Part shown: piece by piece, positions 674 through 19,469 of the stretch
Numbering within the stretch: the first letter of the stretch is position 1
How the letters are laid out: each line of letters opens with the position of its first letter
Assembly (NCBI RefSeq): GCF_000026545.1
Contig: NC_011601.1
Direction: 5' to 3' (one strand)
DNA: 64,000 nucleotides
Origin: Escherichia coli O127:H6 str. E2348/69
Lineage (GTDB): Bacteria; Pseudomonadota; Gammaproteobacteria; Enterobacterales; Enterobacteriaceae
Notes under the pieces: model-generated
The model's database searches: none
What the model saw: only the letters and a program-made list of their open reading frames with translations
What the model was told of the DNA's origin: nothing
Position numbers and translations under genes: made by a program

Positions 674-688
674 TAAGGAGTTTTGATT

Positions 689-994
689 ATGACCGTACGT
701 ATTCTGGCTGTGTGTGGTAACGGACAAGGCAGTTCCATGATCATGAAAATGAAAGTGGACCAGTTTTTAACCCAGTCGAACATCGACCACACGGTAAACA
801 GCTGCGCGGTTGGCGAATACAAAAGCGAGTTGAGCGGTGCGGATATCATCATCGCTTCTACCCATATTGCGGGCGAAATCACCGTGACCGGCAACAAATA
901 TGTGGTTGGCGTGCGCAACATGCTCTCTCCTGCTGATTTTGGCCCGAAACTGCTGGAAGTGATCAAAGAGCATTTCCCGCAGGACGTGAAGTAA
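689..994 (+). CDS. ulaB: PTS ascorbate-specific EIIB component
   Basis: ORF 683-994; product [22 protein letters not shown]... with the CGNGxGSS phospho-cysteine motif; ATG at 689. Confidence 0.9.
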
Positions 995-1003
995 GGACGC
1001 GCC

Positions 1004-1468: not shown

Positions 1469-1481
1469 GAAGGAATTGAAC

Positions 1482-2132: not shown

Positions 2133-2141
2133 GGAGCGGAT

Positions 2142-2996
2142 ATGTTGTCCAAACAAATCCCGCTTGGCATCTACGAAAAAGCACTCCCCGCTGGGGAGTG
2201 CTGGCTGGAACGACTGCAACTGGCAAAAACGTTAGGCTTCGATTTTGTCGAGATGTCAGTAGATGAAACGGACGATCGCCTTTCGCGCCTCGACTGGAGC
2301 CGCGAGCAGCGTCTGGCACTGGTGAATGCGATTGTTGAAACCGGCGTGCGCGTACCGTCCATGTGCCTTTCTGCTCATCGTCGTTTCCCGCTGGGAAGCG
2401 AAGATGACGCGGTGCGGGCCCAGGGGCTGGAGATTATGCGTAAAGCTATCCAGTTCGCCCAGGACGTCGGCATTCGCGTGATCCAACTGGCGGGCTATGA
2501 CGTTTACTATCAGGAAGCCAATAACGAAACGCGTCGTCGTTTTCGTGACGGCCTGAAAGAGAGCGTTGAGATGGCGAGCCGCGCGCAGGTCACACTGGCG
2601 ATGGAGATCATGGATTACCCATTGATGAACTCCATCAGCAAGGCGCTGGGCTACGCACACTATCTCAACAATCCGTGGTTCCAGCTCTACCCGGATATCG
2701 GCAACCTGTCGGCGTGGGACAACGACGTGCAGATGGAGTTGCAGGCTGGAATCGGGCACATCGTCGCGGTGCATGTGAAAGACACCAAACCAGGCGTCTT
2801 CAAAAACGTGCCGTTTGGCGAAGGCGTAGTGGATTTCGAACGTTGCTTCGAAACGCTCAAACAGAGTGGCTATTGCGGGCCGTACCTGATTGAGATGTGG
2901 AGCGAAACGGCGGAAGACCCGGCGGCAGAAGTAGCGAAAGCGCGTGATTGGGTGAAAGCGCGCATGGCCAAAGCAGGCATGGTGGAGGCGGCATAA
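2142..2996 (+). CDS. ulaE: L-ribulose-5-phosphate 3-epimerase
   Basis: 284-aa [45 protein letters not shown]...; sugar-phosphate isomerase/epimerase TIM-barrel. Confidence 0.9.
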
Positions 2997-3676
2997 TGCA
3001 AAAGCTGAAACAGCAGGTGTTTGAGGCCAACATGGAGCTGCCGCGTTACGGGTTGGTGACCTTTACCTGGGGCAACGTCAGCGCTATTGACCGTGAACGC
3101 GGGCTGGTGGTGATCAAGCCCAGCGGTGTCGCCTACGAAACCATGAAAGCGGACGATATGGTAGTGGTCGATATGAGCGGCAAGGTGGTGGAAGGGGAAT
3201 ATCGCCCGTCTTCCGACACCGCCACGCATCTCGAACTCTACCGTCGTTATCCGTCGCTTGGTGGTATTGTCCATACCCACTCCACTCATGCTACCGCATG
3301 GGCGCAGGCGGGGCTGGCGATCCCGGCGTTAGGCACCACGCACGCCGACTACTTCTTTGGCGATATCCCGTGTACGCGCGGATTAAGCGAAGTGCAGGGC
3401 GAGTACGAACTGAACACCGGCAAAGTAATTATCGAAACGCTGGGCAACGCCGAGCCGCTGCATACACCGGGGATTGTGGTGTACCAGCACGGGCCGTTCG
3501 CCTGGGGGAAAGATGCTCACGATGCGGTGCATAACGCGGTGGTGATGGAAGAAGTGGCAAAAATGGCGTGGATTGCCCGCGGCATTAACCCACAATTGAA
3601 TCACATCGACAGCTATCTTATGAATAAACACTTCATGCGTAAGCATGGTCCCAACGCTTATTACGGGCAGAAGTAA
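2996..3676 (+). CDS. ulaF: L-ribulose-5-phosphate 4-epimerase
   Basis: ATG overlaps the ulaE stop (TAATG); product [45 protein letters not shown]... (class II aldolase/epimerase fold). Confidence 0.9.
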
Positions 3677-5896: not shown

Positions 5897-6206
5897 TTTT
5901 AAGTGATAAAAACCGCAGAAACAGACGTTCCCTCCATAAATCTCTTGTTATTCCTTTTATAAAAAGTTCGCAGTACCCATACCTGGCCCCCAGCCTCGCC
6001 GCTGGTAGTTCGTGTCATGTTTTTTACGCGTAAAACACGACAAAAGCATCAATACAGCGATCGTCTCCCTTGTATGATAATAAAAACAATATGTTATATA
6101 TGAATGTGCTGTTATTTTATTGTTTTTATATATAAAAGGATAAAATATCATCACTTTCGTAATCTTGAACGCTTTGCAGGTGCGTTCAATCCAATAAATG
6201 CTAATA

Positions 6207-6227
6207 TTATGGCTATCATAGCCATAA
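6207..6227. promoter_or_regulatory. 21-bp perfect palindrome TTATGGCTAT-C-ATAGCCATAA about 20 bp upstream of the HTH gene start; candidate autoregulatory operator
   Basis: Read directly from the sequence; flanked by two 22-bp direct repeats (about 6125-6146 and 6226-6247). Confidence 0.5.
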
Positions 6228-6247
6228 AAAGATAAAATATTATCACT

Positions 6248-6727
6248 ATGGGTAAAAAAACAGCACCGTTACTCCCTTATACGAATCAGATGCTTAGTGA
6301 ATTTGGTGAGCGGCTGAAACTTGCTCGTTTACGACGCAGGCTTACCGCAAAGCAAGTTGCTGAACGTGCTGGGATGTCGCCAATAACATTGCGCTCTCTG
6401 GAGTCAGGAAGTGCAGGGGTCACGATAGGGGCATATTTGTCTGTGATGCAGGTTTTGGGCCTGGAAACGGATTTAAATAAGCTTGCAGCTGAAGACGACT
6501 TAGGGCGTCAGCTCCAGGATTCCCGTTTGATTAAAAAAAGAGGGCTTTCTCGTTCATCAGGTAAAAATGAAGAAGGTATTCAGACAGACCCTTTTCAAAC
6601 GAGGTATGAGAAAGAAGGTTTACTCACCACGGATTTAACAGCACTGGCAGAAGGCTCAACGCCATCTATTACAGGAGAAACATCAACCTCTCTTGCAGCA
6701 CTATTAAAACCGATAAAAAACCGTTAA
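6248..6727 (+). CDS. Xre/Cro-type helix-turn-helix DNA-binding protein with long low-complexity C-terminal tail; HipB-like regulator of the downstream split-kinase module
   Basis: 159-aa ORF; N-terminal [32 protein letters not shown] is a classic Xre HTH; first gene of a three-gene co-directional cluster. Confidence 0.7.
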
Positions 6728-6740
6728 AAGGAAATTAATT

Positions 6741-7001
6741 ATGGCATTAATCGGAGTGTATGCGGATTGGGAAGGCCTGGATGGTCCGGAGCGGATTGGT
6801 TATTTACACAGTCGCCGCACTCGGACGCGTGAGATATTTGAGTTTGAGTACGATAAAAAGGCGCTTGCAGATCCTTCACTTAATTTCATTCAGTTAGATC
6901 CTGAAATAATGTTGTATGAGGGAGCACAGTACCCAATTCCTCCAAAGGATAAATTTGGTGCATTTAGTGATTCCTGCCCGGATCGTTGGGGCGTATGCTA
7001 A
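6741..7001 (+). CDS. HipA N-terminal subdomain-like small protein (HipS-like putative antitoxin)
   Basis: 86-aa ORF with AAGGA 8 nt upstream; contains ...FGAFSDSCPDRWG, resembling the conserved motif of HipA N-terminal domains; stop overlaps the next start (TAATG). Confidence 0.55.
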   Translation: MALIGVYADWEGLDGPERIGYLHSRRTRTREIFEFEYDKKALADPSLNFIQLDPEIMLYEGAQYPIPPKDKFGAFSDSCPDRWGVC

Positions 7002-8008
7002 TGAAGCGTCGTTTTGAGAGGGATATTCGAGACGGGTTATGTGATAAAGACTCCCACCTTTATGAGTCTGATTATCTACTAGGTGTTCATGATCTTTATC
7101 GGGTTGGGGCTCTTCGATACAAACGTGAAGACGCTGGAGAGTTTCTTGATAATCGCATTGATGTTGCAGCCCCACCATTTACCGAAATAGCGAGTCTGGA
7201 AAGGGCTAGCCGGGCAATTGAAGAAGATCCTGATAATAAAGAGCTAATGGGGCAAAAATGGTTAAGAATGCTAATCGCTCCGGGGGGATCATTAGGGGGG
7301 GCACGTCCGAAAGCCAGTGTTGTTGATGAAGCTGGGCATCTCTACATCGCTAAATTTCCCAGTGTAAAAGATGAGTATGATGTTGGTGGATGGGAAATGG
7401 TCGTTAATGCACTTGCTGTTGGCTGTGGACTGAATGTTGCACCTGCTCAGGCGCATAAATTTGCCAGCAATTACCATTGTTTTATGGTTCGTCGTTTTGA
7501 CCGCACTAATGCGGGAAGGCGTCTGCATTTTGCTTCGGCTATGACACTAACCAGGCATCAGGATGGTGAAGATGCCTCTACAGGTGTGAGTTATCTGGAA
7601 TTAGCAGATGTTCTTATCAGGCATGGCGCGCAGACTAATACTGATCTTAAGGAACTCTGGTCCAGGATTGTTTTTAATATTCTTGTTTCTAATACCGATG
7701 ACCATTTACGTAATCATGGATATATCTTGATACCGGGAAAAGGTTGGCGGCTTTCTGAGGCATATGATTTGAATCCTGTTGCCAGGTCTGACGGTCTAAA
7801 ACTCAATATTACAGAAAATGATAATGCACTTGATTTGGAATTAGCTCGAGAAGTTGCGGAGTATTTTCGACTTGGTTTGACAGAAGCAGATGACATTATT
7901 GCTAATTTTAGAGGGATTGTCAGTCAGTGGCGAATCATTGCCGAGCGTCTTCGATTACCTGGTCGTGAGCAAGAGTTAATGGCAGAGGCGTTCAGGGGGG
8001 CAATTTAG
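7001..8008 (+). CDS. HipA-family Ser/Thr kinase core (HipT-like putative toxin)
   Basis: 335 aa from ATG 7001 (ORF 6986-8008); Gly-rich loop GGSLGGARPKAS, catalytic-loop-like VSNTDDHLRNHG and downstream AYDLNP at HipA-like spacing. Confidence 0.65.
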   Translation: MKRRFERDIRDGLCDKDSHLYESDYLLGVHDLYRVGALRYKREDAGEFLDNRIDVAAPPFTEIASLERASRAIEEDPDNKELMGQKWLRMLIAPGGSLGGARPKASVVDEAGHLYIAKFPSVKDEYDVGGWEMVVNALAVGCGLNVAPAQAHKFASNYHCFMVRRFDRTNAGRRLHFASAMTLTRHQDGEDASTGVSYLELADVLIRHGAQTNTDLKELWSRIVFNILVSNTDDHLRNHGYILIPGKGWRLSEAYDLNPVARSDGLKLNITENDNALDLELAREVAEYFRLGLTEADDIIANFRGIVSQWRIIAERLRLPGREQELMAEAFRGAI

Positions 8009-8104
8009 AATAGTTATTTTGATATATTCGCTAAATCATAAATTTGCGAAGCAATGCCAGTAGATACTGAACGTTTTGGAAGAGACGTTTAATTTATGAG
8101 AAAA

Positions 8105-8141
8105 ATAGAAACGCTACAAAGCTAAATTATAGCGTTTCTAT
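8105..8141. terminator. Inverted repeat (atagaaacgct / agcgtttctat) between convergent kinase gene and MFS transporter gene; probable bidirectional terminator
   Basis: 11-bp arms with about 15-nt loop in AT-rich context. Confidence 0.45.
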
Positions 8142-8150
8142 GTAAAATAA

Positions 8151-9428
8151 TTAGCTTGTCGCTAACTGTACTTGTGGTTCTTCGTCTTTAACTTTGATAA
8201 GCATCCACAGCGCAATGGCGCCAATAATGTCAAAGAAAGCCAGGGCAATAAAGAACGGCGCGAAGCCAATAATGTGAACGAATGCCCCGATAAACAGGTT
8301 GAAAATCAACTGACCGCTCCATGCACAGGCTCCTGCCATACCCACAGCGGTAGCTACTTCGTCTTTTTTGAATAGGTCACCGCCCAGAGTTGCTGCAACA
8401 GTAGAAAGACATTGATGCGAGAATGCGCCAATGCTAATCAGTAATACGGCGATGTAGGGATTTTCGACAATACTCACCAGACCAATCGTCATCATAATGA
8501 CGGCTGCAATAGTGAAGGTAATTCTTCGTGAGTTAATTAAACTCACGCCGCGATCGTGGAAGAACTTCGCGACAAAACCACTGGCTAAACAGCCGAGATC
8601 GCCCAGCAGGAAAGGCAGCCAGACGAACATGGCAATTTCTTTCAGGCTAAAATGCAGCGTTTCGACGAAGAAAATCGGTACCCAGAAGTTAATGGTTCCC
8701 CATGCCGGGTCAGCGAGAAAACGCGCGATGCCAATCCCCCAGAAATTACGTTGGCTGAGGATATGCTTGATTGACGTTTTTTCTTTCTTATCTGTTTTAA
8801 GATGCTGTTCTTGCCCAGACTCAATATAGTGGCGCTCTTCATCAGAAAGGCGTTTAGCATCTTTTGGATCTTTATAACAAAAGAACCAAAATAAAGCCGC
8901 GAGTAAAGCAAGGCTACCTGAGACAATAAACGCAAATTGCCAGCTATGAAACATAATGCACCAGGCAATCAACGGTGGAGCAAGCATCGCGCCGAGTGAG
9001 GTGCCCATATTGAAAACACCTGTCGCCACGCCACGCTCTTTTGCCGGGAACCATGTTGATGCGGTTTTTACACCCGCAGGAATTGCCGATGCTTCGCTGA
9101 AACCCATCAGGGCGCGCATAAATGCCAGACCTGACCATGTTCCTGTCAAGGCATGCCCCATTGTCGCCAGGCCCCAGATTGCGGCACATATCGCAAAACT
9201 TAACTTCAGACCCACGGTATCAATAAAGAAGCCCATTATCGGTTGCCCCAATGTATAGGCCAACTGGAATGCACTGACAATCCATGAATATTGTTCTTTG
9301 GTTATTCCGGTTGTCTCCATAATCGTTGGAGCCGCAATACCTAACGCCGTTCTGTCCAGATAATTGATTACAGTGATAAAGCATACGAGGGCAATCATAT
9401 GCCATCGATAATTCTTTATTTTATTCAT
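8151..9428 (-). CDS. MFS transporter, anion:cation symporter (ExuT/GudP-like) family; probable organic-acid importer
   Basis: 425-aa ORF, about 12 predicted TM segments, N-terminal ...YLDRTALGIAAP... typical of hexuronate/aldarate-type MFS permeases. Confidence 0.75.
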   Translation of the reverse strand: MNKIKNYRWHMIALVCFITVINYLDRTALGIAAPTIMETTGITKEQYSWIVSAFQLAYTLGQPIMGFFIDTVGLKLSFAICAAIWGLATMGHALTGTWSGLAFMRALMGFSEASAIPAGVKTASTWFPAKERGVATGVFNMGTSLGAMLAPPLIAWCIMFHSWQFAFIVSGSLALLAALFWFFCYKDPKDAKRLSDEERHYIESGQEQHLKTDKKEKTSIKHILSQRNFWGIGIARFLADPAWGTINFWVPIFFVETLHFSLKEIAMFVWLPFLLGDLGCLASGFVAKFFHDRGVSLINSRRITFTIAAVIMMTIGLVSIVENPYIAVLLISIGAFSHQCLSTVAATLGGDLFKKDEVATAVGMAGACAWSGQLIFNLFIGAFVHIIGFAPFFIALAFFDIIGAIALWMLIKVKDEEPQVQLATS

Positions 9429-9520
9429 TTTTAAACCTTTTAATTATATTAATAAACCCTGGTTATTGGTATTTCCATGTAATAGGCAATAAAAATCAGG
9501 TACAGAGGAAATATTGAAAA

Positions 9521-11593
9521 TTATTGTGTGTAAATGTCTCCCTTTAAAAAGTCTGGCCAGTTTTTTTCAAAGTAAATACCGTTAATACACGGTTGAATAC
9601 GTAAAGACTTTACTTCGGTAATAAAAGAACCTTGCGAATATTGAATTGTTAATTTGTGATTTTTGTCTTCAGCGAGTTCAGAGCGAAAACGCCATTCTTC
9701 TTTTGCGCCGCGACGAGTTTGTGGTAGGCATTTGCCTTGTGGATCAATAACCATACGCGCCCCACGGCTACCACCACCAGCATCAATATAATGCGTTAAT
9801 TGTGTTAATACCGCGGCAGAAGTCAGCGCCATATGCCGCCACATAAACAGCTCGGCAACTTCACCCACATGTTTGATTGCCAATCCATGCCGTTGCACAA
9901 ATTCACTCAATAGCAGGGCATCACGAGTGGCGCGTCGGACTTTATCGGCATGGCAAATAAATCCCGCATGGTCAGACATTCGTGCCTGAATTTTTTCTCT
10001 CACAACCGACAACGGCATCCCGGTCCCGTTATCGTGCGCCTGAGTAATGATCTCTCTTATAGAAGCCAGTGCCGGAGCTGCCAGCTGTGCAATATCTCCA
10101 TCAATATTCCGCTTTTGCGTGCAACCAATAAAGCGCGCCAGACGAACAGCAAAAACCTGCCCGGCATTCAACGCCGCGCCGCCAGGTCGGGTGACGCCGT
10201 GTGTGCCAGCAACTTCCCCCACCGCAAAACAACCGGGCAGAGATGTTTGTCCCCAGATATCGACTTCAATGCCGCCATTCATGTGCTGATTATTCATGGC
10301 AAACTGCAATGGCTGCGTGATGAGATCGTAACCGTGCATCTTATACAGCGAGATAGACAGAGGATTCATTCGTTGCAGGCGTTCGATGGGCGATGGTGCC
10401 AGAGCGTCGTTATTTTCCAGATACGTGCGAACGTCGTCGTCCAGTCGATCTAATGAGAACGGCAGGTCACCCGGCACAGGTTCAGGATTGCGATTGAAAT
10501 CCATAAATACCTGACGCCCTGATTGCTGCTCTTGCGCCACCGCCATATCTAACAAGCTGGAGCCAAAATCCATTACCCGCGTGGCGTGGAATGGCCACTG
10601 ATAGCCTTTACGGAAGATGTTTGAAGCCAACTCCTGGGTGGTGCGATAGTAATCTGCGAGGAAGTTATACTCGTTGCCCCCAGCATCCACGGAATAGATA
10701 TATGGGATCACCTGTACATAGGTGCCGGACAAATTCCACGGAAACGTGCTGCGCGGTGTGCCGATACCAAACTGGCTTTCAGTCAGATTCGTTAACGTCA
10801 GACCTTCCTCCAGCGCCAGCCCCAGCGAGCCGAAACATTTGTGTGGATACACACTGTCGCGATAAAGCTCGCCAGGCCCGCCTGTTGCCAGTACCACATT
10901 GGGTGCAGTCACAATTGCCAGCCCCCATGGGTTATGGGCGCGATGACCGGTCGCGAGGATTGCCCCCGCCACACGGTCTTCACCGTTTTCGTCACGCTGA
11001 TGCAGCAGTTTAATCACTGTTGCACTGGTCAACATTGGGATAGCAAGACGCTGTACTTCTTCCAGCAGCACTTTCACCATTAACCTTGAGGTACGCGGCC
11101 CACACGAGGTTGCACGCCCGGCTTCGTCGTGGTCGGTTTGATAACGAAGAATCGCGCCATAGCGATCTTCCGGTAATTCCAGACCAAGATATTGCAACCC
11201 GCCAAGAGTGTGCAGAGAACCTACCGCTTCAACATAAGCGGTGTCGTGATCCATCGCCCCACCGCTCGCCAGTGCCTCTGCCAGTTTGGCGAAGTTGTCG
11301 CCGTTGCCCGCGGTAGCGGCGGTAAACAGTGTTTGTTTATCAGAGCCAGAACATGCCGACGTCCCCATATATAACCCGGCGGTGGCGATTAACACATTTT
11401 GCTGGCGGCGTTTAAGTTCCACAGCTGCACGCAGCCCGGCTGCACCACTGCCGACTACCAGGGCATCTGTTTTCCAGAGTGGGTAATCAACACCGTCTAC
11501 CGTGACAACCCATGCGGGGTCTGCCTGTGCAAAACCCTTTGGGAAAGTAACGTGCGTCAGCGCATCAAGGATGGTGTCATCAAGCTGACTCAT
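9521..11593 (-). CDS. FAD-binding oxidoreductase, fumarate reductase/succinate dehydrogenase flavoprotein-like (690 aa)
   Basis: N-terminal dinucleotide-binding motif DALVVGSGAAGLRAAVEL; large size; ATGA overlap with upstream CoA-transferase gene. Confidence 0.65.
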   Translation of the reverse strand: MSQLDDTILDALTHVTFPKGFAQADPAWVVTVDGVDYPLWKTDALVVGSGAAGLRAAVELKRRQQNVLIATAGLYMGTSACSGSDKQTLFTAATAGNGDNFAKLAEALASGGAMDHDTAYVEAVGSLHTLGGLQYLGLELPEDRYGAILRYQTDHDEAGRATSCGPRTSRLMVKVLLEEVQRLAIPMLTSATVIKLLHQRDENGEDRVAGAILATGHRAHNPWGLAIVTAPNVVLATGGPGELYRDSVYPHKCFGSLGLALEEGLTLTNLTESQFGIGTPRSTFPWNLSGTYVQVIPYIYSVDAGGNEYNFLADYYRTTQELASNIFRKGYQWPFHATRVMDFGSSLLDMAVAQEQQSGRQVFMDFNRNPEPVPGDLPFSLDRLDDDVRTYLENNDALAPSPIERLQRMNPLSISLYKMHGYDLITQPLQFAMNNQHMNGGIEVDIWGQTSLPGCFAVGEVAGTHGVTRPGGAALNAGQVFAVRLARFIGCTQKRNIDGDIAQLAAPALASIREIITQAHDNGTGMPLSVVREKIQARMSDHAGFICHADKVRRATRDALLLSEFVQRHGLAIKHVGEVAELFMWRHMALTSAAVLTQLTHYIDAGGGSRGARMVIDPQGKCLPQTRRGAKEEWRFRSELAEDKNHKLTIQYSQGSFITEVKSLRIQPCINGIYFEKNWPDFLKGDIYTQ

Positions 11594-13131
11594 GCATCCT
11601 CCATCGGCGTAAACAGGCTGCTTTCCATCAGACGTGGGTGCCTGATAATCGGACGGAAGGCCATGAATGGCAGAATGTCGCGCTCAATCTCTACGCCAGG
11701 GGCGATCTCAATTAATTCAACGCCTTCTGCCGTTAACTGGAATACCGCACGTTCGGTGATATACAGCACTTCCTGACCGCTTTGCTGTGCGTAGGCGGCG
11801 CTAAAGGTGATTTTTTCCACCAGGGCAACCAATTTAGGGATTTGACCTGACTGGGCGATATGCAAGCCATCTGGCGTTACATCAATCTTGCTGCCTTTGG
11901 CGTCGAACGTACCGCAAAACACCACTTTACGGGCGTTTTGTGCAATTTCGAGAAATCCGCCGGGGCCAATGAGATTGCCATTAAGATGGGATACGTTGAC
12001 GTTACCGTACCGATCCATCTCTCCCATGCCGAGGAAGGTGATATCGATACCGCCGCCACTGTAGAATTCGAATTGATCGAGTGATGGAATAATGGCATCG
12101 GCGTTACGGGCGCAGCCGAACAGAGCATCATCCAGCATCATGCCGTTATGTACACCCTGTTCTACACTCAGCCACAAACTTTGATAAGGCACGCCTTCGC
12201 GCAGCGCAACCCCAGGAATACCGCCGGGAATACCAAAGCCAAAGTTGGTTGAAGCGCCTGCCACCAGTTCCCGCGCTGCCCGACGGGCAATCAGGCGACG
12301 CACCGGATGACTAACCAGTTCAATAGCGTCGTTAGAACTTAGACGGCGATGTTGACCGCTGATGGTCAGGTCGTAACCGCCAAGATAGGTTTGCGGTTGT
12401 TCGCGGTGCTCAACGATGCCATCGACCAGAATTCCTGGTAGCTTGACCCGACGTGGTTCAATGGTACCTGCTTCCAGCACATCGCGGACCTGTACGAACA
12501 CTTTGCCGCCGCTGTTGTGTGCTGCCAGCGCCATCGAATAGCTATCCATATAAATCGCTTCTTCTTCGAGGCTAACGTTGCCTCGTGGATCGGCATAAGT
12601 GCCACGCAAAATCGCGTAATCCACTTTGAAAGGGCGATAACGAAGTTTGGTCTCACCGTCGATTTCAATCAGTTCTACCAGGTCGTCGGTAGTGCATTCA
12701 TTCGACTTACCGCCGCCATTGCGTGGATCAACAAACGATCCCAGCCCAACGTGGGTAAAAAGCCCCGGACGTCCGGCACCGATCTCCCGCAGCAGTGCCT
12801 GAATTACGCCACCAGGGAAACAGTAGGCTTCAATAGCATTGCTTTTCACCAGTTCCTGCATCTTGGGCGACCAGGTAAAATGTCCGGCAATAATGCGTTT
12901 GAGCATTTCGGCGTGAGCAAAACGGTTAGTGCCTTTGCTGTCGCGATCGCCAATACCCAGCGAGTGGATTAATGTCAGATCGCGCGGGTGTCCGGTTTGC
13001 AGGAAACGCGCTTCAATGGCGGCCAGAATATGGTCAGCTTCCACCATACCGCCGCCGTTACCGCTAATGGCAATGGTTGCGCCGTCCTGAATTTGCGCCG
13101 CCAGTGTCTCGGCGGTTGATAACTTACGCAT
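11590..13131 (-). CDS. Family I CoA-transferase (acetyl-CoA hydrolase/transferase, fused alpha/beta, YdiF/Pct-like)
   Basis: 513-aa ORF MRKLSTAETLAAQIQDGATIAISGNGGG... with the glycine-rich CoA-transferase N-terminus and duplicated domain architecture. Confidence 0.7.
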   Translation of the reverse strand: MRKLSTAETLAAQIQDGATIAISGNGGGMVEADHILAAIEARFLQTGHPRDLTLIHSLGIGDRDSKGTNRFAHAEMLKRIIAGHFTWSPKMQELVKSNAIEAYCFPGGVIQALLREIGAGRPGLFTHVGLGSFVDPRNGGGKSNECTTDDLVELIEIDGETKLRYRPFKVDYAILRGTYADPRGNVSLEEEAIYMDSYSMALAAHNSGGKVFVQVRDVLEAGTIEPRRVKLPGILVDGIVEHREQPQTYLGGYDLTISGQHRRLSSNDAIELVSHPVRRLIARRAARELVAGASTNFGFGIPGGIPGVALREGVPYQSLWLSVEQGVHNGMMLDDALFGCARNADAIIPSLDQFEFYSGGGIDITFLGMGEMDRYGNVNVSHLNGNLIGPGGFLEIAQNARKVVFCGTFDAKGSKIDVTPDGLHIAQSGQIPKLVALVEKITFSAAYAQQSGQEVLYITERAVFQLTAEGVELIEIAPGVEIERDILPFMAFRPIIRHPRLMESSLFTPMEDA

Positions 13132-13140
13132 ACAATTTCC

Positions 13141-13923
13141 TTATTGATTGTGGAAGCTCACGCCGGCTTTTTCGGCAAATGCGTGCGTCGCCTGTTGGCA
13201 ATCCTGAGTGGCGGACATTAATCCAGCCAGTAACTGGTGGGAGTAATCGGCGTGTTTATTTTCCAGCGCCAGAATCAGTTGCTTAATATGTGCCAGTGCC
13301 ACCGGACCACATTTTTCCAGCTGCGCTAACTGGTTCACCATCCAGCTTTCCACCTGTTCTTTTTCTACCACTTCATCAATTAAATTCGCTGTCTGAGCTT
13401 CCTGCGCCGTCAGGCGTTTACCCAGCATCAGCATCTGGCGACCGACCACCGGGCCAACCTGATTAAGCACGCGTTCAATGCCCATCCAGCCAGGCACCAT
13501 GCCGAGCATCACTTCCGGGTTAGAGAATTTCGCGCCGGGGCGAGCGATACGAATATCACAGCACAAGGCGAGTTCAATCCCACCGCCAATGGTATGACCG
13601 TTGAGATTTGCAACCGTTAATTGGGGTAAATTGCGCAGGCGATTAAAAACCTCGTTACCGCGTTTAATCCATTTTCTGCCCATATCTAATGGCGAATAGG
13701 CCGACCACGATTTAATATCGCCGCCCGCACAAAAGAATTTATCGCCGGTTGCCGTTAATTCGACTAATCGTAATGTGGTGTCGTTTTCAATTTCATTTAA
13801 ATAATGGTCGAGAGATTCGATCATTTCTTCATTAATAGCATGACATTTATCTTCACGGTTCAATGTCAGGCGGCAAGAAGCCGCCGCTCTGCTGAACAGA
13901 ACGGGTTGGTCATTCATGATCAT
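13141..13923 (-). CDS. Enoyl-CoA hydratase/isomerase (crotonase) family protein
   Basis: 260-aa ORF; ...DKFFCAGGDIKSW... and ...NGHTIGGGIELALCCDIRIA... match the crotonase oxyanion-hole segments. Confidence 0.75.
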   Translation of the reverse strand: MIMNDQPVLFSRAAASCRLTLNREDKCHAINEEMIESLDHYLNEIENDTTLRLVELTATGDKFFCAGGDIKSWSAYSPLDMGRKWIKRGNEVFNRLRNLPQLTVANLNGHTIGGGIELALCCDIRIARPGAKFSNPEVMLGMVPGWMGIERVLNQVGPVVGRQMLMLGKRLTAQEAQTANLIDEVVEKEQVESWMVNQLAQLEKCGPVALAHIKQLILALENKHADYSHQLLAGLMSATQDCQQATHAFAEKAGVSFHNQ

Positions 13924-13926
13924 TCC

Positions 13927-14769
13927 TTAACAATAATGTGCGATGCGATCGACGCTAATATCCAGCGTGCTGTTAATATCTTTCTGCCACCAGTACGGTG
14001 AGAATATTTCCAGTTCAATAGCGCCATTAAATCCGGCGTTTTCAACCAGCCGACGAATTGACGGAATATTGATGACACCATCTCCCGGCATTCCACGGTC
14101 ATTGACCAGATCGGTGGTCGGCACTAACCAGTCGGAAACATGAAACGCGAGGATGCGTTTTCCGGCACGCAGGATCTGACTGGCGAGATCCGGGTCCCAC
14201 CAGACATGGTAGACATCTACCGCCACGCCGAGGCCAAATTCGCCATCGGGATCGAGTTCATCACACCAGTCCAGCGCCTGACGTAACGTGCACAGACAAG
14301 AACGATCGGCAGCAGTCATCGGGTGCAGTGGCTCCAGTGCAATTGGCACGCCGACCTCTTTCGAATGTGGCAGCAACTGGCGAATCCCTTGTTTCACCTG
14401 TTCCCGTGCTTCGTACAGATCTTTTGTTCCCATTGGCAGACCGCCAACCACCTGCATATAACAGGCGGCGTTCAGTACAGCGGCGTCGTCCAGCGCCCGG
14501 CGGTTATCGTCAATCGCCAGTTTGCGCTCCGCCAGCGTCGGTGCGGTGTAGTAGGTGCTACGGCACAAACCGGAAACGTTCATGTTACTGGCAGCAAGCT
14601 GGCGGGCGATTTGCTGGAGATCTTCACTCTGCAACTCCCTGCGCCAGGGGGCAATCGCGCCAATACCGCGTGCGGCGCAGGCATCAATAATGGCGGGTAG
14701 CGGCGTTTTATAGCCCAGTGTCGCGGTATTGATACTGAATAAATCCGGGCGTTGTAACAGATCTCTCAT
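13927..14769 (-). CDS. Sugar-phosphate isomerase/epimerase (xylose isomerase-like TIM barrel) family protein, possibly a dehydratase
   Basis: 280-aa ORF with ...LAFHVSDW... and ...IELEIFS... typical of the AP-endonuclease-2/xylose-isomerase-like fold. Confidence 0.6.
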   Translation of the reverse strand: MRDLLQRPDLFSINTATLGYKTPLPAIIDACAARGIGAIAPWRRELQSEDLQQIARQLAASNMNVSGLCRSTYYTAPTLAERKLAIDDNRRALDDAAVLNAACYMQVVGGLPMGTKDLYEAREQVKQGIRQLLPHSKEVGVPIALEPLHPMTAADRSCLCTLRQALDWCDELDPDGEFGLGVAVDVYHVWWDPDLASQILRAGKRILAFHVSDWLVPTTDLVNDRGMPGDGVINIPSIRRLVENAGFNGAIELEIFSPYWWQKDINSTLDISVDRIAHYC

Positions 14770-14778
14770 GATTCAGCC

Positions 14779-15570
14779 TCAGAAGCGCGGCATACTTAAG
14801 CCGCCGTCGATGGCGACCGCCTGACCACAGGTGTAAATCAGTTTACCTTCCGCCATCGCGCGGACAGTGGAAGCAATATCAGCCGGATAACCCCAACGTC
14901 CCCACGGCACCAGACCTTTGGCAATCAGTTCGTCGTAATAGGCCGTTGCCGGAATAGTCATATCGGTTTTGATGAGACCAGGACGCACTTCATATACGCC
15001 AATTTGTTCATTACAAAGGCGAGCAGCAAACAGACGAGCAGCGGCAGAGACGGCAGTTTTGGCAATGGTATATTCGCCGCGATTCATCGCCAGCATGATG
15101 GCGTTGATGGAACTGACAAAAATAATCGAGCGGTGCGGCAGTTCTGCTTCCGGTTTCGGCTGTGCCAGTAAGCGCTTACTGAATGCCTGAGCAAGGAAGA
15201 ACGGTGCGCGGGTGTTAATGGCAATATTTTGGTCGAAGCTGTCTGGTTCGAGGTCGAGAAGGTCACCGCGTTTTTTCACTGAAATGCCTGCGTTGTTGAG
15301 CAGGCAGTCCAGACGTCCCCACTGGTTTTGCGCTGCGTCGAGCATCTCTTCATGCAGGGAGAGATCGCCCACATCAGCAGGGAAGCAAATCACTTCCACG
15401 CCTTCCGCCAGACATTCTTGTTGTGTGGCATGTAATTTTTCTACGCTATCGGCATCCGGACGATCATTAATCAGCAGATTAAATCCGCCACGCGCAAGCT
15501 CCAGCGCACAGCCTTTTCCAATACCACGTGCGGCTCCGGTAATCACGGCAACAGGACGAGTGGATTTCAT
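14779..15570 (-). CDS. Short-chain dehydrogenase/reductase (SDR)
   Basis: 263-aa ORF; cofactor motif VAVITGAARGIGKG, NNAG, and catalytic Y-x3-K (EYTIAKTAV). Confidence 0.8.
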   Translation of the reverse strand: MKSTRPVAVITGAARGIGKGCALELARGGFNLLINDRPDADSVEKLHATQQECLAEGVEVICFPADVGDLSLHEEMLDAAQNQWGRLDCLLNNAGISVKKRGDLLDLEPDSFDQNIAINTRAPFFLAQAFSKRLLAQPKPEAELPHRSIIFVSSINAIMLAMNRGEYTIAKTAVSAAARLFAARLCNEQIGVYEVRPGLIKTDMTIPATAYYDELIAKGLVPWGRWGYPADIASTVRAMAEGKLIYTCGQAVAIDGGLSMPRF

Positions 15571-15639
15571 ACAATAGCTCTCTTTTTTTTGAATTTTGTT
15601 TCCTTAGTGATGATTAGCTTGCGACTGGAGGGTAAAAAG

Positions 15640-15661
15640 ATCAACCATCTAGTTGGTTGAT
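15640..15661. promoter_or_regulatory. Inverted repeat ATCAACCA-N6-TGGTTGAT in the divergent SDR/TetR intergenic region; candidate TetR operator
   Basis: 8-bp perfect arms read directly; about 70 bp upstream of the SDR start and about 120 bp upstream of the TetR start. Confidence 0.45.
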
Positions 15662-15783
15662 ATGCGATGGCGATCACAGGACATTTGATAACCTGATGAA
15701 AGTACAAGTTTTTGCCCTTTTTTCTGAAGCTGAAATCAAATCAGGTTATGATAGTCACCACGAAGAGGTCGTGGGGAAGCGTT

Positions 15784-16431
15784 ATGTATCTTGATACCAG
15801 CAACGTACAGAGCCTGAAAGAAAAGCTGCTGTTATGCGCGGTTAATGAATTTGCCGAATATGGTTACGAAGGGGCCAGAGTCGATAATATCGTCAAGGCC
15901 GCGGGGTGCAGTAAACAGACGGTTTATCACCACTTTGGTAATAAAGAAAATTTATTTATCGAAGTACTGGAATATACCTGGAACGATATTCGACAAAAAG
16001 AAAAGGCCCTTGATTTCTCAGATCTTCCGCCACAGAAAGCCATTGAGAAAATAATCGATTTTACATGGGATTATTATATTTCTAATCCCTGGTTTTTAAA
16101 AATTGTGCATAGTGAAAATCAAAGTAAGGGTGTGCATTATGCAAAATCACAGCGTCTTTTAGAAATTAACCATGCGCACTTGCAGTTAATGGAATCCTTA
16201 TTGGATGAAGGGAAGAAACAAAATATTTTTAAGCCAGATATCGACCCATTGCAGGTGAATATTAATATTGCTGCGCTTGGGGGATATTATTTGATCAACC
16301 AGCATACGCTTGGCCTGGTTTATCACATCAGTATGGTTTCACCGCAGGCACTGGAAGCCAGACGTAAGGTCATCAAAGAGACAATCCTTAGCTGGCTTTT
16401 GGTTGACCCTTCATCTACCGCGCGCGAATAA
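15784..16431 (+). CDS. TetR/AcrR-family transcriptional regulator
   Basis: Internal ATG of ORF 15712-16431; N-terminal ...[44 protein letters not shown]... is a canonical TetR HTH. Confidence 0.8.
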
Positions 16432-17053
16432 AACTGCCATCCGGCTGGCGGGTAAACAGGACCTGTTGATTATTCCCCGTATCAATGGTTAAGCCCGTCA
16501 CCACGCCGCTGGCGTTCTGGCGGATTTTCACCATCTGCCCGTTTTGCAAATTACTCAGTGGCTTATCCGCGCCTTCTACCTGCGCCATGGCATAGACATC
16601 GGTAGCGGGCAGTCCGTGGTCGCGGAACAGCTGCGCCATCGTTTTACCGGGTTCGACACGATAGGAGCGCCATTGATTATCAATTCCGCTATCTGGCTGG
16701 AATGGTTGCGTATGGGTGGTTTGCGGCTGCTCTTCTGGCTGGCCTTCCTGTATTGGTTCTGGAGCGACCGGAGCCACCTGATCAGGATCATTTTGTGGCG
16801 TGACTAATTGCGCCCGCAGCTGTTCTTCTGTCGGTGGTTGTGATTGCGACTGAATATCTAACTGCGCTTCACGCGTCACCACCGGCGCGTTGGGCGTATC
16901 ATCAGATGGAAGCAGAAATCCGACCACCAATACAATGGCGGCAATAATGATCCCCCGACGATGCATCGGCGGCAGCGGGTCCATGAAGCGAAAATTGTCC
17001 GGCGCGTGCCAGACTTTCTCCAGGGTTGGTTTTAGTTCAAAGCGCCCGGGCAT
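16415..17053 (-). CDS. ytfB: Cell-division protein with OapA/LysM-like C-terminal domain
   Basis: 212-aa product [34 protein letters not shown]... with Pro/Gln-rich linker; 3' end overlaps the TetR gene 3' end. Confidence 0.85.
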
Positions 17054-17919: not shown

Positions 17920-19469
17920 CTGTCTCTTATACACAAATCCCCACCCGGGGATTTGTGATGTCTGTCAGTCTGCTTTAGGGGGACTCTTTCCATCCGGTAG
18001 TTTCCTTCCTCCCCGGCAGCGATTTTTTGAACTTTTTCCTCACCTGTTGATCTTCTCTTATATTTCATTTTCTTCGGGTCTGTTATGGTACTTTCTGATT
18101 GTTATTCATGGGCTAACGAGCAGTTTGGACATGCCCGTCTCGGTGATCCGCGTCGTACACGACGCCTTGTGTCACTGGCCTCTTCTCTCGCTCAGCATGC
18201 AGGTCTTTCTATTGTGAAATCATCCCAGTCCACTGCTCAGGTTGAAGGTGCGTACCGCCTGATACGTAACCCGTCTGTGTCCCCGCAAGCCATTGCCGAA
18301 GCCGGATTTACCGCCACTGTAAGGGCATGTGAGGCTCATCCGCTGCTCCTCGCGCTGGAAGACACCACCACCATTAACTTCAGTCACAGTACGGCATCTG
18401 ATGACCTGGGGAATACCACCACTAACCCGAAGACGCGCGGGCTGCTGGCTCACTCTGTCCTGATGTACGCCCCCGACAGCGCCCTGCCAGTCGGTCTTAT
18501 CGAACAGCAGCGCTGGAGTCGTGCCACGGACACCTACGGTGTTAAGCACCAGCGAAAAGAACGTCCCTATGAAGAAAAAGAAAGTTACCGCTGGCAGCAG
18601 GCTTCGGAGCGCATGGCCGAACGGCTGGGGGAGATACAGAAACGGGTAATCACTGTCTGTGACCGGGAAGCGGATATCTGGCATTACCTGCATTATAAAG
18701 TCAGCCACGGGCAGCGCTTCGTGGTGCGTGCAGCACAGAATCGCCGGCTGGAAGAAGCACCCGGCAAGCTCTTCGAACTGCCGGAAGTCCTGGCAACCGC
18801 GGGAAGCCACACGCTGAATGTGATGCAAAAAGGCGGGCGGGCAGCCCGCCAGGCCCGGATGTTCATCAGTTACAGCGAAGTCAGCATAAAAAATCCCGAC
18901 AACAGCGGCCAGGCGCTCCCGCTCACGTATGTCTGTTGCCGGGAGCAGGCAGAGGACGGCGCCTGCTGGCATCTGCTGACGTCAGAAAAAGTGGCGAGTG
19001 CCGCCGATGCGCGACGTATCGTCAGCCATTACGAGCGACGCTGGCTGATAGAGGAATACCACAAGGCGTGGAAAAGTGGTGGTACATGTGTGGAATCGCT
19101 GTGAATGCAGACCCGGGATAACCTCGAGCGCATGGTGGTTATCAAGGCGTTTATCGCGGTGCGGGTGCTGGGCCTGCGGCAGGGCGGTATCAGTGAAGAA
19201 ACACAAAATGACAGCTGTGAGAAAATACTGACGCCGACAGAGTGGAAACTGCTGTGGGTTAAGCTGGAAGGAAAACCGCTTCCGTCACAGATGCCGACAC
19301 TGAAATGGGCCTGTCTGAAACTGGCGAAACTGGGGCGATGGCATGACAGCAAACGCACCGGTCGCCCCGGTTGGGTAGTCATGTGGGATGGCTGGTTCAG
19401 ACTTCAGGATATGGTTGAGGGTTACCTGGTGATGAAGTCTCTTGATCAGGAGATCTGATCAAGAGACAG
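17920..19469 (+). mobile_element. IS50/Tn5-like insertion sequence (IS4 family) with diverged transposase
   Basis: Left end CTGTCTCTTATACACAAAT (2 mismatches to the Tn5 outside end as I recall it); right end is the exact reverse complement of the Tn5 inside end CTGTCTCTTGATCAGATCT; flanked by direct repeat cgaaccag; internal Tn5-Tnp-like ORF. Confidence 0.85.
18085..19458 (+). pseudogene. Tn5-like transposase interrupted by an in-frame TGA at 19102-19104 (ORFs 18085-19104 and 19105-19458, same frame)
   Basis: N-fragment LGDPRRTRRLV...EGAYRLIRNP...LALEDTT...CDREADI...RRWLIEEYHKAWKSG closely resembles Tn5 Tnp including the DDE positions; C-fragment DNLERMVV...AVRVLGLRQ... continues the alignment after the stop. 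Confidence 0.7.

Follow-up and report, generated by a model that had tools for sequence, protein, structure and literature searches.

Which compound is metabolised by the genes found on the minus strand of Escherichia coli E2348/69, at positions 8151-15570 of the 64-kb window (the whole stretch of DNA that was analysed)? An earlier note had described here six co-directional genes of the families given below, beside a divergent TetR gene. All the open reading frames were confirmed, and the RefSeq annotation contains the same six genes and the divergent TetR gene at 15784-16431. The locus comprises the following features.

8105-8141, minus strand: terminator-like hairpin, a 15-pair stem with a trailing T run, directly 3' of the MFS gene
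8151-9428, minus strand: MFS permease of the anion:cation symporter type, 425 aa (TIGR00893)
9521-11593, minus strand: FAD flavoprotein with an SdhA/FrdA-like fold, 690 aa (PF00890 only)
11590-13131, minus strand: fused alpha/beta family I CoA-transferase of the YdiF/Pct type, 513 aa (PDB match to YdiF; PF01144)
13141-13923 (RefSeq start 13917), minus strand: crotonase-fold enoyl-CoA hydratase/dehydratase, 258-260 aa (NCBIfam; ECH_1; motifs)
13927-14769, minus strand: xylose-isomerase-like TIM barrel of isomerase/epimerase structural type, 280 aa
14779-15570, minus strand: SDR, 263 aa, the operon's first gene (NF009386)
15640-15661, no strand: candidate TetR operator, a 22-bp palindrome, ATCAACCATCT/AGTTGGTTGAT (cross-genus conservation)
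15663-15678, no strand: CRP-like site, TGCGATGGCGATCACA (consensus match in the window)
15784-16431, plus strand: TetR/AcrR-family regulator, 215 aa (TetR_N and TetR_C_29)

The family assignments were backed by NCBIfam, Pfam and PDB matches (YdiF, 9e-116; SMc04130, 1e-85). Along the operon, the gaps at the junctions are 9, 3 (9 with the RefSeq start of the crotonase gene), 9, -4 and 92 nt. A single true ATGA overlap was thus measured, between the CoA-transferase and FAD genes, where two had been claimed. The hairpin at 8105-8141 is the probable end of the operon.

The gene order and the chromosomal site, between rplI and ytfB, are common to E. coli E2348/69, Klebsiella oxytoca and Salmonella, and the whole conserved unit consists of seven genes, the six enzyme and permease genes plus the TetR gene. 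Comparison with the ETEC6, K. oxytoca and Salmonella orthologues gave dN/dS values of 0.03-0.19 for all scorable genes, those of the FAD gene in both cross-genus comparisons and of the MFS gene against Salmonella being unscored owing to saturated dS. The operon is under strong purifying selection. These values, together with an order and a site kept across three genera, indicate that it is more than a set of chance open reading frames.

Of 5426 complete E. coli genomes, 3172 contain the enzyme genes; K-12 and about 42% of the complete genomes are without the operon. K-12 lost the locus by deletion: what is left there of the operon's TetR gene is the pseudogene ytfA, which keeps only the part corresponding to 16029 onward, the E2348/69 copy being intact. 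The MFS permease accompanies the enzymes in 1660 of the 3172 genomes. About 1500 others are without the MFS segment, and a TRAP system occupied its place in the one inspected; a TRAP transporter thus apparently substitutes for the permease in this second form. The flanks of the operon in E2348/69 contain frameshifted hipBA-like genes and a defective IS element.

The palindrome at 15640-15661 is nearly invariant across E. coli, K. oxytoca and Salmonella within an intergenic region that has otherwise diverged, making it a candidate operator for the TetR protein. The adjacent CRP-like site is the sole match with at most one mismatch in the window, and in K. oxytoca and Salmonella its left half matches TGTGA perfectly. 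From these sequences, the operon is probably repressed by the TetR protein and CRP-dependent. The patchy occurrence and the damaged flanking genes could suggest a decaying remnant, functionless in E. coli. However, all genes are intact and show the low dN/dS values given above, the regulatory sites are conserved, and the transporter was exchanged, not lost, so that we regard decay as very improbable.

We then considered what is imported. The MFS permease scored 314 bits with TIGR00893, under the cutoff of 395. It is the most variable component of the operon, only 51% identical to its K. oxytoca and Salmonella counterparts, and its gene has a GC content of 0.435, compared with 0.50-0.56 in the enzyme genes. 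TRAP transporters are carboxylate-uptake systems. The best PDB matches of the TRAP binding protein (7e-71 to 7e-51) include 4X8R and 4N8Y, which bind glucuronate and galacturonate, respectively (PMC11668362), and are the only two top matches whose ligands are backed by a paper. The protein is about 45% identical to such uronate-binding TRAP proteins, a level that does not fix its ligand. The anion-type permease, its replacement by a TRAP system and the resemblance of the binding protein to glucuronate and galacturonate binders point to an acid substrate, in agreement with the import of an organic acid proposed earlier. A Brenneria locus carries an MFS permease of the aromatic-acid type; since transporter families vary between lineages, substrates may vary too.

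The CoA-transferase resembles YdiF over its full length, at about 40% identity, and its E324 aligns with the catalytic E333 of that enzyme; it falls below every NCBIfam equivalog cutoff. The known substrates of YdiF-type CoA-transferases are short-chain acids, not sugar acids. The crotonase matches NCBIfam short-chain enoyl-CoA hydratase models and Pfam ECH_1, and its translation retains both Glu motifs (GGGIEL and NPEVMLG). The retention of these residues is consistent with activation by CoA transfer followed by hydration or dehydration, as had been suggested. The closest characterised structural neighbours of the TIM barrel are IolI, ketose 3-epimerases, YgbM and YcjR; these are isomerases or epimerases working next to a carbonyl. 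The SDR scored 420 bits with NF009386 (cutoff 250) and 117 bits with the KduD model, far under its cutoff of 339.

The flavoprotein has PF00890 (FAD_binding_2) as its only Pfam domain. Its AF2 model (pLDDT 91.6) superimposes on FrdA and SdhA with TM scores of 0.6-0.8, at 15-19% identity. It shares with the SdhA/FrdA/NadB superfamily the four-domain fold, FAD_binding_2 and the HG..R motif, whose Arg corresponds to FrdA Arg390 and is kept as Arg469, but it has neither the covalent-FAD His nor a gene for an Fe-S partner subunit. Active-site mapping showed that the catalytic residues H232, E245 and R287 of the FrdA capping domain are absent, and a fumarate-reductase-type enzyme was rejected on this ground. 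Motifs of its own (GSDKQT, WNLSG, KGYQWPF and GSSLID) are invariant in the family, which counts 415 clusters at 50% identity below 1e-30. All the AFDB homologues are unnamed. The protein therefore founds a widespread, unannotated SdhA/FrdA-like family.

The neighbourhoods of 72 flavoprotein loci from other taxa were surveyed. The most frequent neighbour is an SDR (28/72). Gfo/Idh/MocA relatives of levoglucosan and inositol dehydrogenases occur in 23/72 and match the levoglucosan-dehydrogenase and IolG models with scores far under the cutoffs. PfkB kinases scoring best as KdgK adjoin the flavoprotein in 17 loci and an Eda-type (KDPG) aldolase in 14. GMC oxidoreductases, OYE enzymes, LacI regulators and CUT1 ABC transporters were also found, and a BNR_4 propeller is added in Phycisphaerae. 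Overlapping genes lie head to tail in the order Gfo-FAD-PfkB in Rhodobacter and Gfo-FAD in Rhizobium, while a natural OYE-FAD fusion ties the flavoprotein to a second flavin/Fe-S redox enzyme. The CoA-transferase/crotonase pair recurs with the flavoprotein in Rhodobacter (FAD-PfkB-CoAT-ECH-Aldedh), Devosia, Rubellimicrobium, a betaproteobacterium and a Desulfobacterales genome; ACAD, ETF and MaoC genes accompany it in two loci. In most lineages, the flavoprotein and the SDR occur without any CoA enzyme. The flavoprotein is thus the conserved core, and the CoA pair an accessory module added in some lineages. What E. coli carries widely, and K-12 has lost, is an operon centred on a flavoprotein family without described function.

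The CoA enzymes could be taken as the signature of a cai-like or beta-oxidation-like route for a short hydroxy or unsaturated acid (3-hydroxypropionate/acrylate or 3-hydroxybutyrate/crotonate), possibly a C3 or C4 fragment freed from a larger molecule. CoA transfer would precede (de)hydration by the crotonase; the SDR would be the 3-hydroxyacyl dehydrogenase of this route, and the flavoprotein its enoyl(-CoA) or enoate dehydrogenase/reductase. CoA-transferase, crotonase, flavoprotein and a FabG-like SDR make up a beta-oxidation cycle minus thiolase. The similarity to YdiF, a short-chain enzyme, the ACAD, ETF and MaoC genes beside the CoA module and the same logic in the carnitine cai operon favour this route, and soluble FrdA-like enzymes do reduce enoates. 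However, the FrdA residues for enoate reduction are those missing here, and the route leaves unexplained the TIM barrel, the lineages without CoA enzymes, the KdgK/Eda, Gfo and GMC neighbours and the uronate-like TRAP binding protein. We consider it quite unlikely.

A full-text literature search revealed no paper on the cluster and none supporting any substrate; as far as could be checked, it indeed corresponds to no named E. coli pathway. The earlier note had put forward three substrate classes as speculation. The hydroxycinnamate-like one found no support. The sugar-acid-like one is favoured by the uronate-binder-like TRAP protein and by the neighbours of the flavoprotein in other phyla, among them KDG kinase and KDPG aldolase. 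The quinate/shikimate-like one stands as a rival, in which the SDR would oxidise a ring hydroxyl of a hydroaromatic or cyclitol carboxylate, the IolI-like TIM barrel would isomerise the inosose-type ketone, and the flavoprotein would desaturate next to the ketone, like KstD or cyclohexanone dehydrogenase; the CoA-transferase and crotonase would treat the ring carboxylate as in alicyclic-acid degradation. We hold this pathway to be unlikely.

Our tentative reading is that of a functional, TetR-repressed and probably CRP-dependent operon for an imported carboxylic acid, most likely hexuronate-like, with a KDG-type product as the most likely end. The acid would enter through the MFS permease or, in the other E. 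coli form, the TRAP system. The CoA-transferase would load its carboxylate onto CoA, which would acidify the alpha-hydrogen and may allow the crotonase to beta-eliminate or hydrate the thioester, a step for which we found no precedent. For example, a uronyl-CoA would lose its 4-OH or 4-OR group to give a 4-deoxy-5-keto product, and CoA would be handed to the next substrate molecule. Judging from fold and context, the TIM barrel and SDR may shift and reduce the carbonyl, as KduI and KduD do. The flavoprotein would remove two electrons in a C-C or C-H dehydrogenation, or run the corresponding reduction, beside a carboxylate or carbonyl held by its Arg469/His437 pair. The unlinked KdgK and Eda of E. 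coli would convert the KDG-type product to pyruvate and glyceraldehyde-3-phosphate. The equivalent alphaproteobacterial cluster includes an ABC importer for neutral sugars, GMC oxidoreductases and, where the CoA pair is present, an aldehyde dehydrogenase, which would form the acid intracellularly from a CH2OH precursor.

Several points argue against this scheme. It assigns no defined step to the flavoprotein, the best-conserved component, which CoA-assisted elimination, isomerisation and reduction would not require; the SDR differs from KduD; and the E. coli operon itself carries no genes for KdgK and Eda. In the literature searched, no paper mentions CoA esters of uronic or aldonic acids, and uronyl-CoA chemistry is therefore unprecedented. 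Alternatively, an unusual uronate (L-iduronate, L-guluronate or 4-O-methyl-glucuronate, for instance) could be converted to D-glucuronate or D-galacturonate for the Uxa/Uxu route, which E. coli possesses. C4 would be oxidised by either the flavoprotein or the SDR; epimerisation of the neighbouring carbon by the TIM barrel and reduction of the ketone by the SDR would follow. The likeness of the barrel to epimerases acting next to a ketone (YcjR, ketose 3-epimerases) and the uronate-like TRAP protein agree with such a conversion, and SDH-like dehydrogenation across C4-C5 of a uronate appears chemically reasonable. Yet this wholly inferential proposal leaves the CoA-transferase and crotonase without a role, and in other taxa KdgK and Eda, not Uxa/Uxu genes, directly follow the flavoprotein. 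It seems to us distinctly unlikely.

The hexuronate-like scheme can finally be compared with known systems. With the KduI/KduD-KdgK-Eda (and Uxa/Uxu) route it would share the KDG endpoint, followed by kinase and aldolase; isomerisation and SDR reduction beside a carbonyl and an acid-sugar importer are common to both, and KdgK- and Eda-type genes adjoin the flavoprotein gene in other phyla. KduI is, however, a cupin and not a TIM barrel, and to our knowledge no known uronate route employs CoA esters or an SdhA-like flavoprotein. YdiF, a fused family I acyl-CoA:acetate CoA-transferase, is paired with flavin redox enzymes in the E. coli ydi cluster; the operon, at another locus, has no acyl-CoA dehydrogenase or ETF but has the TIM barrel, SDR and SdhA-like protein. 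In the cai operon, CoA is transferred onto a hydroxy acid, a crotonase dehydrates it, a flavoenzyme acts on the product by enoyl-CoA reduction and CoA is recycled by transfer. CaiB is a class III CoA-transferase and CaiA an acyl-CoA dehydrogenase-family enzyme, whereas the transferase of the present operon belongs to family I and its flavoprotein is SdhA-like, and cai is without TIM barrel or SDR. The sole sugar-acid CoA-thioester route that we found is the deoxyribonate pathway of Klebsiella michiganensis, also enterobacterial and with MFS transporters, which runs via acyl-CoA intermediates (Price et al. 2019, PMC6365646). Its CoA synthetase, beta-hydroxyacyl-CoA dehydrogenase, thiolase, lactonase and glycerate kinase (PMC6365646) all lack counterparts in the operon, and neither an SdhA-like protein nor a TIM barrel belongs to that pathway. 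The ycjQRS, levoglucosan Lgd, 3-keto-glycoside and iol IolG/IolI systems are without SdhA-like flavoprotein or CoA enzymes, and the E. coli operon is without a Gfo gene; the likeness to these oxidation-isomerisation/elimination-reduction modules lies in the combination of a dehydrogenase, Gfo/Idh/MocA or SDR, with a xylose-isomerase-like TIM barrel at the new ketone.

The six minus-strand genes of the operon were recovered by ORF checking at exactly the positions given in an earlier note, which had been made from the sequence alone, and 8.5 kb of the window showed 100% identity to E. coli O127:H6 E2348/69. All the family assignments of that note were borne out by matches to NCBIfam, Pfam and PDB entries. 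RefSeq gives the same six genes generic names.

Features of the operon and of its control region
8105-8141, strong terminator-like hairpin, 3' of the permease gene
8151-9428, minus strand, MFS permease, last in transcription order
9521-11593, minus strand, FAD protein
11590-13131, minus strand, fused CoA-transferase
13141-13917/13923, minus strand, crotonase
13927-14769, minus strand, xylose-isomerase-like TIM barrel protein
14779-15570, minus strand, SDR (first in transcription order)
15640-15661, 22-bp palindrome ATCAACCATCT/AGTTGGTTGAT, candidate TetR operator
15663-15678, CRP-like site TGCGATGGCGATCACA, directly beside the palindrome
15784-16431, TetR/AcrR gene (RefSeq), divergent from the operon

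The gaps at the successive junctions, in transcription order, are 9, 3, 9, -4 and 92 nt. Of the two ATGA overlaps previously claimed, just one is present, at the CoA-transferase/FAD junction (-4 nt). Two E. coli protein records, P0003 (1078 aa) and P0030 (1043 aa), contain the CoA-transferase and FAD domains in one protein, presumably by read-through at the 4-nt overlap, or else as a sequencing or annotation artefact.

The rplI-ytfB interval of Klebsiella oxytoca and of some Salmonella enterica contains all seven genes, the six of the operon and the TetR gene, with their order unchanged. In this comparison the enzymes are 77-94% identical in protein, and pairwise dN/dS ranges from 0.03 to 0.19 where dS could be estimated, with at least one estimate for every gene. 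On these comparisons, the operon is a conserved functional unit. Were it a decaying remnant, a reading that we disfavour, it would be so in spite of this selection and of the intactness of its genes. A recently acquired genomic island was ruled out because the operon is syntenic in Klebsiella and Salmonella. The sequence directly downstream of the operon (6248-8008) contains genes for a hipB-like HTH protein and a hipA-family toxin, annotated as frameshifted pseudogenes in E2348/69; an EamA-family transporter gene occupies this position in K. oxytoca and Salmonella. Between fklB and cycA (18085-19458) lies an ISEc13 transposase gene, IS4-like and interrupted by a stop codon; K-12 lacks this insertion, and its fklB and cycA genes are direct neighbours.

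The divergent regulator consists of TetR_N and TetR_C_29 domains. Of the 213 bp intergenic region that it shares with the operon, only one block has escaped divergence between genera, and this block contains the palindrome. The palindrome is nearly invariant across three genera, and directly beside it lies the CRP-like site, its left half being a perfect TGTGA in Klebsiella and Salmonella. It is the sole match to the CRP consensus with at most one mismatch in the 64-kb window, where about two are expected by chance, so that weight should be given to its position and conservation rather than to its occurrence. We read this arrangement as a putative TetR operator with catabolite control, typical of an inducible carbon-source operon. 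A consensus scan of the intergenic region did not reveal any convincing sigma-70 promoter, and promoter-consensus counts over 7900-16500 were at or below the shuffled expectation.

Operon sequence was detected in 3172 of 5426 complete E. coli genomes. Among these carriers, 1660 cover at least 80% of the operon and are window-like, and roughly 1500 cover only the stretch from within the 3' end of the FAD gene through the SDR gene. In ETEC6, the one such genome that we inspected, TRAP genes encoding DctQ, DctM and DctP take the place of the MFS gene, and the FAD gene is intact and 93% identical, with its last ~80 residues divergent. These three genes are found at 395-3239 of the ETEC6 locus (L091) and in a second locus of the TRAP form (L004). 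Within the window, the GC content is 0.435 at 8001-10000 (MFS gene and 3' end of the FAD gene) versus 0.50-0.56 in the enzyme genes, and the permease is only 51% identical to its Klebsiella and Salmonella counterparts. The TRAP replacement, the GC content and the low permease identity together argue that the transporter is an exchangeable cassette, whereas the enzyme set is constant. The low-GC stretch coincides with the breakpoint of the MFS/TRAP cassette (~9753). Between the two E. coli forms of the operon dS is 0.14-0.34, which looks high within one species and suggests either old haplotypes or import from another species.

Window positions 5900-16028 are missing from K-12, in which about 1.1 kb containing yjfZ, encoding a DUF2686 protein, replaces this 10-kb segment (NC_000913.3, 4426611-4427693). 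Homology restarts at 16029, within the TetR gene, indicating that the pseudogene ytfA is the 3' stump of the operon's regulator. This deletion probably explains why the operon escaped study; ytfA itself is mentioned in the literature only as a variably present TetR gene.

The only domain identified in the flavoprotein is FAD_binding_2 (PF00890, 1e-25). None of its close relatives has a solved structure (the top sequence match in PDB scores 35 bits), and fold searches of PDB and AFDB returned no characterised close homologue. Its AF2 model (pLDDT 91.6) has a four-domain fold and superposes over its full length on FrdA/SdhA in Foldseek, with TM 0.6-0.8 and 15-19% identity. In an hhalign comparison with E. 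coli FrdA, His44, which carries the covalent FAD, is replaced by T/S; of the catalytic residues in the capping domain, H232 is replaced by G276 and E245 by V295, and R287 falls in a gap. The FAD is expected to be bound non-covalently. FrdA R390 is kept as the invariant R469 (HG..R), near which H437, possibly equivalent to FrdA H355, is also invariant. Fumarate reductase, succinate dehydrogenase and L-aspartate oxidase were ruled out as identities since their catalytic residues are absent, and NCBIfam equivalog scores were far under the cutoffs (TfrA, for example, 123 versus 718). The flavoprotein is therefore a member of this superfamily other than these three enzymes, with family-specific invariant motifs (GSDKQT, WNLSG, KGYQWPF and GSSLID). 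Judging by the modelled fold and the Arg/His pair, its reaction may be a dehydrogenation or a reduction, by two electrons, next to a carboxylate or carbonyl group. At 50% identity the family falls into at least 415 clusters (E < 1e-30), and its AFDB homologues, every one generically named, include proteins of Enterocloster bolteae, Victivallis, Succinatimonas, Halanaerobium and the Asgard archaeon Promethearchaeum.

No gene for an Fe-S partner subunit (SdhB/FrdB/TfrB) was found in the operon or among the recurrent neighbours elsewhere. In some lineages an OYE/4Fe-4S protein is encoded near the flavoprotein and is once fused to it: the metagenomic protein P0149 (1084 aa) joins an OYE-like FMN/4Fe-4S domain (residues 1-446) to an SdhA-like flavoprotein. 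The fusion and the flanking OYE genes suggest a two-flavin redox couple, in which the flavoprotein of anaerobes may exchange electrons with a second flavin/Fe-S enzyme.

To analyse the genomic context of the family, a family alignment was used to retrieve 80 loci of species-representative genomes, in which ORFs were called, the neighbours clustered and the recurrent clusters annotated. The counts listed here cover the 72 non-Escherichia loci and are lower bounds, owing to crude ORF calling in high-GC loci and to many short contigs.

Recurrent neighbours of the flavoprotein gene (loci out of 72, lower bounds)
SDR of the same type, 28
Gfo/Idh/MocA dehydrogenases, 23, matching levoglucosan dehydrogenase and IolG over the full length but under the cutoffs
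GMC oxidoreductases, two types, 20 and 19
LacI regulator, 18
PfkB kinases, with KDG kinase as their top-scoring assignment, 17
CUT1 ABC ATPase, 16
OYE-type Fe-S flavoenzymes, 15
Eda-type KDPG aldolase, 14
the TIM barrel protein, 10

The typical order is ABC-GMC-GMC-Dabb-LacI-Gfo-FAD-KdgK(-Eda) in Rhodobacteraceae and rhizobia, OYE/GltD-SDR-Eda-(BNR_4)-FAD-KdgK-MtnA in Phycisphaerae, and OYE-FAD-SDR in anaerobic Firmicutes and Aminicenantes, preceded in one Clostridiales locus by a putative TIM barrel ORF. Closer to E. coli, Pseudescherichia, Mangrovibacter and Phytobacter have a TetR gene beside SDR-Gfo-TIM-MFS-FAD, and Brenneria a TetR gene beside SDR-TIM-FAD-MFS, with an MFS protein of the aromatic-acid type. 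Two of these arrangements were confirmed by gene calls that carry precomputed Pfam domains: Gfo-FAD-PfkB-CoA_trans-ECH-Aldedh-ABC-GMC in Rhodobacter, with overlapping starts and stops, and Aldedh-ABC-GMC-GMC-Gfo-FAD in Rhizobium leguminosarum. The CoA-transferase/crotonase pair accompanies the flavoprotein in four further loci, from Devosia, Rubellimicrobium, a Desulfobacterales genome and a betaproteobacterium, where the arrangement is CoAT-ECH-TRAP-MaoC-ACAD-EtfBA-TIM-FAD. The recurrence of neighbours across loci argues for a conserved core in which the flavoprotein is joined by a dehydrogenase, SDR or Gfo, and which in most cases would feed a kinase and an aldolase of the KDG type; the CoA-transferase/crotonase pair is a recurrent add-on outside this core.

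In five loci from Phycisphaerae MAGs (L053, L060 and L073-L075) a gene for a secreted BNR_4 beta-propeller protein separates the Eda gene from that of the flavoprotein; an MtnA-like isomerase is encoded close by in Phycisphaerae MAG loci, some of which also encode a GH28-like protein (pectate-lyase fold). In a Desulfobacterales MAG (L068, 13719-16397), genes for a putative IlvD/Edd-type dehydratase and a DapA-family aldolase, both assigned from N-terminal sequences only, lie just downstream of the FAD/ACAD/CoA-transferase genes. They may represent a second type of sugar-acid endpoint adjoining the flavoprotein, here in a strict anaerobe.

Residues 8-508 of the CoA-transferase align to residues 19-518 of YdiF over the full length (9e-116). 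The PcaI/ScoA and PcaJ/ScoB half-models both match the single polypeptide, and PF01144 (CoA_trans) is precomputed for the K. oxytoca and Salmonella orthologues. The protein is thus a fused alpha/beta family I enzyme of the YdiF/Pct type, with predicted CoA-transfer activity. Its E324, in a VE(T/Q)G motif, aligns with YdiF residue 333, which we take to be the catalytic glutamate forming the glutamyl-CoA thioester. The crotonase has ECH_1/ECH_2 domains, and all its NCBIfam enoyl-CoA hydratase matches are under the equivalog cutoffs. In rat ECH the catalytic glutamates E144 and E164 are located in GGGxEL and PE motifs; the crotonase contains GGGIELAL and FSNPEVMLG, so that both glutamate motifs of true hydratases/dehydratases are kept. 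An alternative use of such a CoA pair would be the conversion of a short hydroxy or enoic acid in the manner of beta-oxidation or of the cai operon, to be weighed against the KDG kinases and KDPG aldolases found beside the flavoprotein.

The SDR belongs to NF009386 (PRK12745; 420 bits versus a cutoff of 250). KduD, the 2-dehydro-3-deoxy-D-gluconate 5-dehydrogenase, was rejected as its identity (TIGR01832, 116.9 bits versus a cutoff of 338.85), and its score is also far under the FabG equivalog cutoff. The TIM barrel protein matches PF01261 (AP_endonuc_2) and shares 48% identity with SMc04130 of S. meliloti (3qc0/3ju2), itself uncharacterised. The structures that rank next are those of IolI, ketose 3-epimerases, YgbM and YcjR, isomerases or epimerases acting beside a carbonyl; dehydratases, lyases and hydratases ranked lower, placing it nearest to metal-dependent keto-sugar isomerases/epimerases.

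Three lines point to a sugar acid as substrate: the importers, the relatives of the TRAP binding protein and the KdgK/Eda neighbours. The MFS permease is of the anion:cation symporter type, and TRAP systems import carboxylates; both E. coli transporters are therefore likely acid importers. A quinate/shikimate-like cyclitol-acid route is a less likely alternative. Whole-sequence comparison of the TRAP binding protein (WP_000695892, from an ETEC6-type strain), encoded outside the window, gave PDB matches from 7e-71 to 7e-51 at ~45% identity, led by 4OVR (7e-71), 4X8R (2e-68) and 4N8Y (4e-68). Of the matched proteins, 4X8R binds glucuronate, 4N8Y galacturonate and 7BBR KDG (PMC11668362). The match to 7BBR was at 2e-35. 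The other top matches reportedly bind hexuronates as well. Finally, KDG kinase and KDPG aldolase adjoin the flavoprotein in two unrelated phyla.

The E. coli operon combines acid importers with the absence of GMC oxidoreductases and aldehyde dehydrogenase, whereas the alphaproteobacterial clusters combine a neutral-sugar ABC importer with GMC oxidoreductases, and with an aldehyde dehydrogenase where the CoA pair is present. This contrast fits a common acid intermediate, which E. coli would take up directly and alphaproteobacteria would make by oxidising a CH2OH group. We propose that a uronate-like acid is imported and that CoA is transferred onto its carboxylate; the thioester would enable elimination or hydration by the crotonase, after which CoA would be handed back to the next substrate molecule. 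The TIM barrel enzyme could then shift the carbonyl and the SDR reduce it to yield an acid of the KDG type, on which KdgK and Eda, encoded at unlinked sites, would act. Alternatively, the operon might be an epimerisation or unblocking module feeding the standard hexuronate route, a role in keeping with the structural neighbours of the TIM barrel protein. Any scheme that leaves the flavoprotein idle is incomplete, since it is the most conserved part. For this reason routes from 1,5-anhydroglucitol, levoglucosan-type or inositol-type substrates, which gave the flavoprotein no necessary step, were not proposed. CoA esters of uronic or aldonic acids are not mentioned in the literature that we searched, which is both the main objection to the CoA-dependent sugar-acid scheme and the main source of its interest.

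C5-deprotonation and C4-elimination are normally carried out by polysaccharide lyases or metal-dependent dehydratases. In its strongest form, which we hold to be rather unlikely, our proposal is that the operon is the first route to process a uronate-type sugar acid through CoA thioesters, the CoA-transferase and crotonase performing this chemistry on the monomer, and that the SdhA-like flavoenzymes, a family not recognised before, lie at the centre of a pathway from sugar acids to KDG that extends over Proteobacteria, the PVC group, Firmicutes and even an Asgard archaeon. A CoA module acting on the sugar acid itself would represent carbohydrate chemistry of an undescribed kind.

We rate the cluster as a probable inducible operon for acid catabolism, whose core enzyme family is uncharacterised and whose enzymes form an unusual combination. 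More than half of the sequenced E. coli strains, including EPEC E2348/69 and other human and animal strains, carry it intact and selectively maintained, making it a conspicuous orphan pathway of the E. coli pangenome. It offers clear experimental handles, the ligand being approachable through the MFS/TRAP swap, the TRAP binding protein and the TetR/operator pair. Knowing the substrate would add a nutrient niche by which gut lineages of E. coli differ, would account for the ytfA pseudogene of K-12, and would give a first function to a large flavoprotein family whose genes adjoin those of KDG kinase and the aldolase in marine Rhodobacteraceae, rhizobia, Planctomycetes and gut anaerobes.

A literature search that included the protein accessions, 7VPF, 3JU2, 3QC0, SMc04130 and ytfA found no publication on the cluster, nor was a matching pathway found in the GapMind/RB-TnSeq paper. 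That the earlier note did not recognise any named E. coli pathway agrees with these searches and with the comparison to known systems, among which we found no match. The CoA-dependent deoxyribonate cluster of K. michiganensis, considered as a candidate, was rejected on gene content: it encodes a CoA synthetase, a beta-hydroxyacyl-CoA dehydrogenase, a thiolase and a glycerate kinase (PMC6365646), and the operon contains none of these four. The operon is likewise distinct from the cai, ydi, kdu/uxa, iol, ycj and lgd systems, although it has individual folds or logic in common with each of them.
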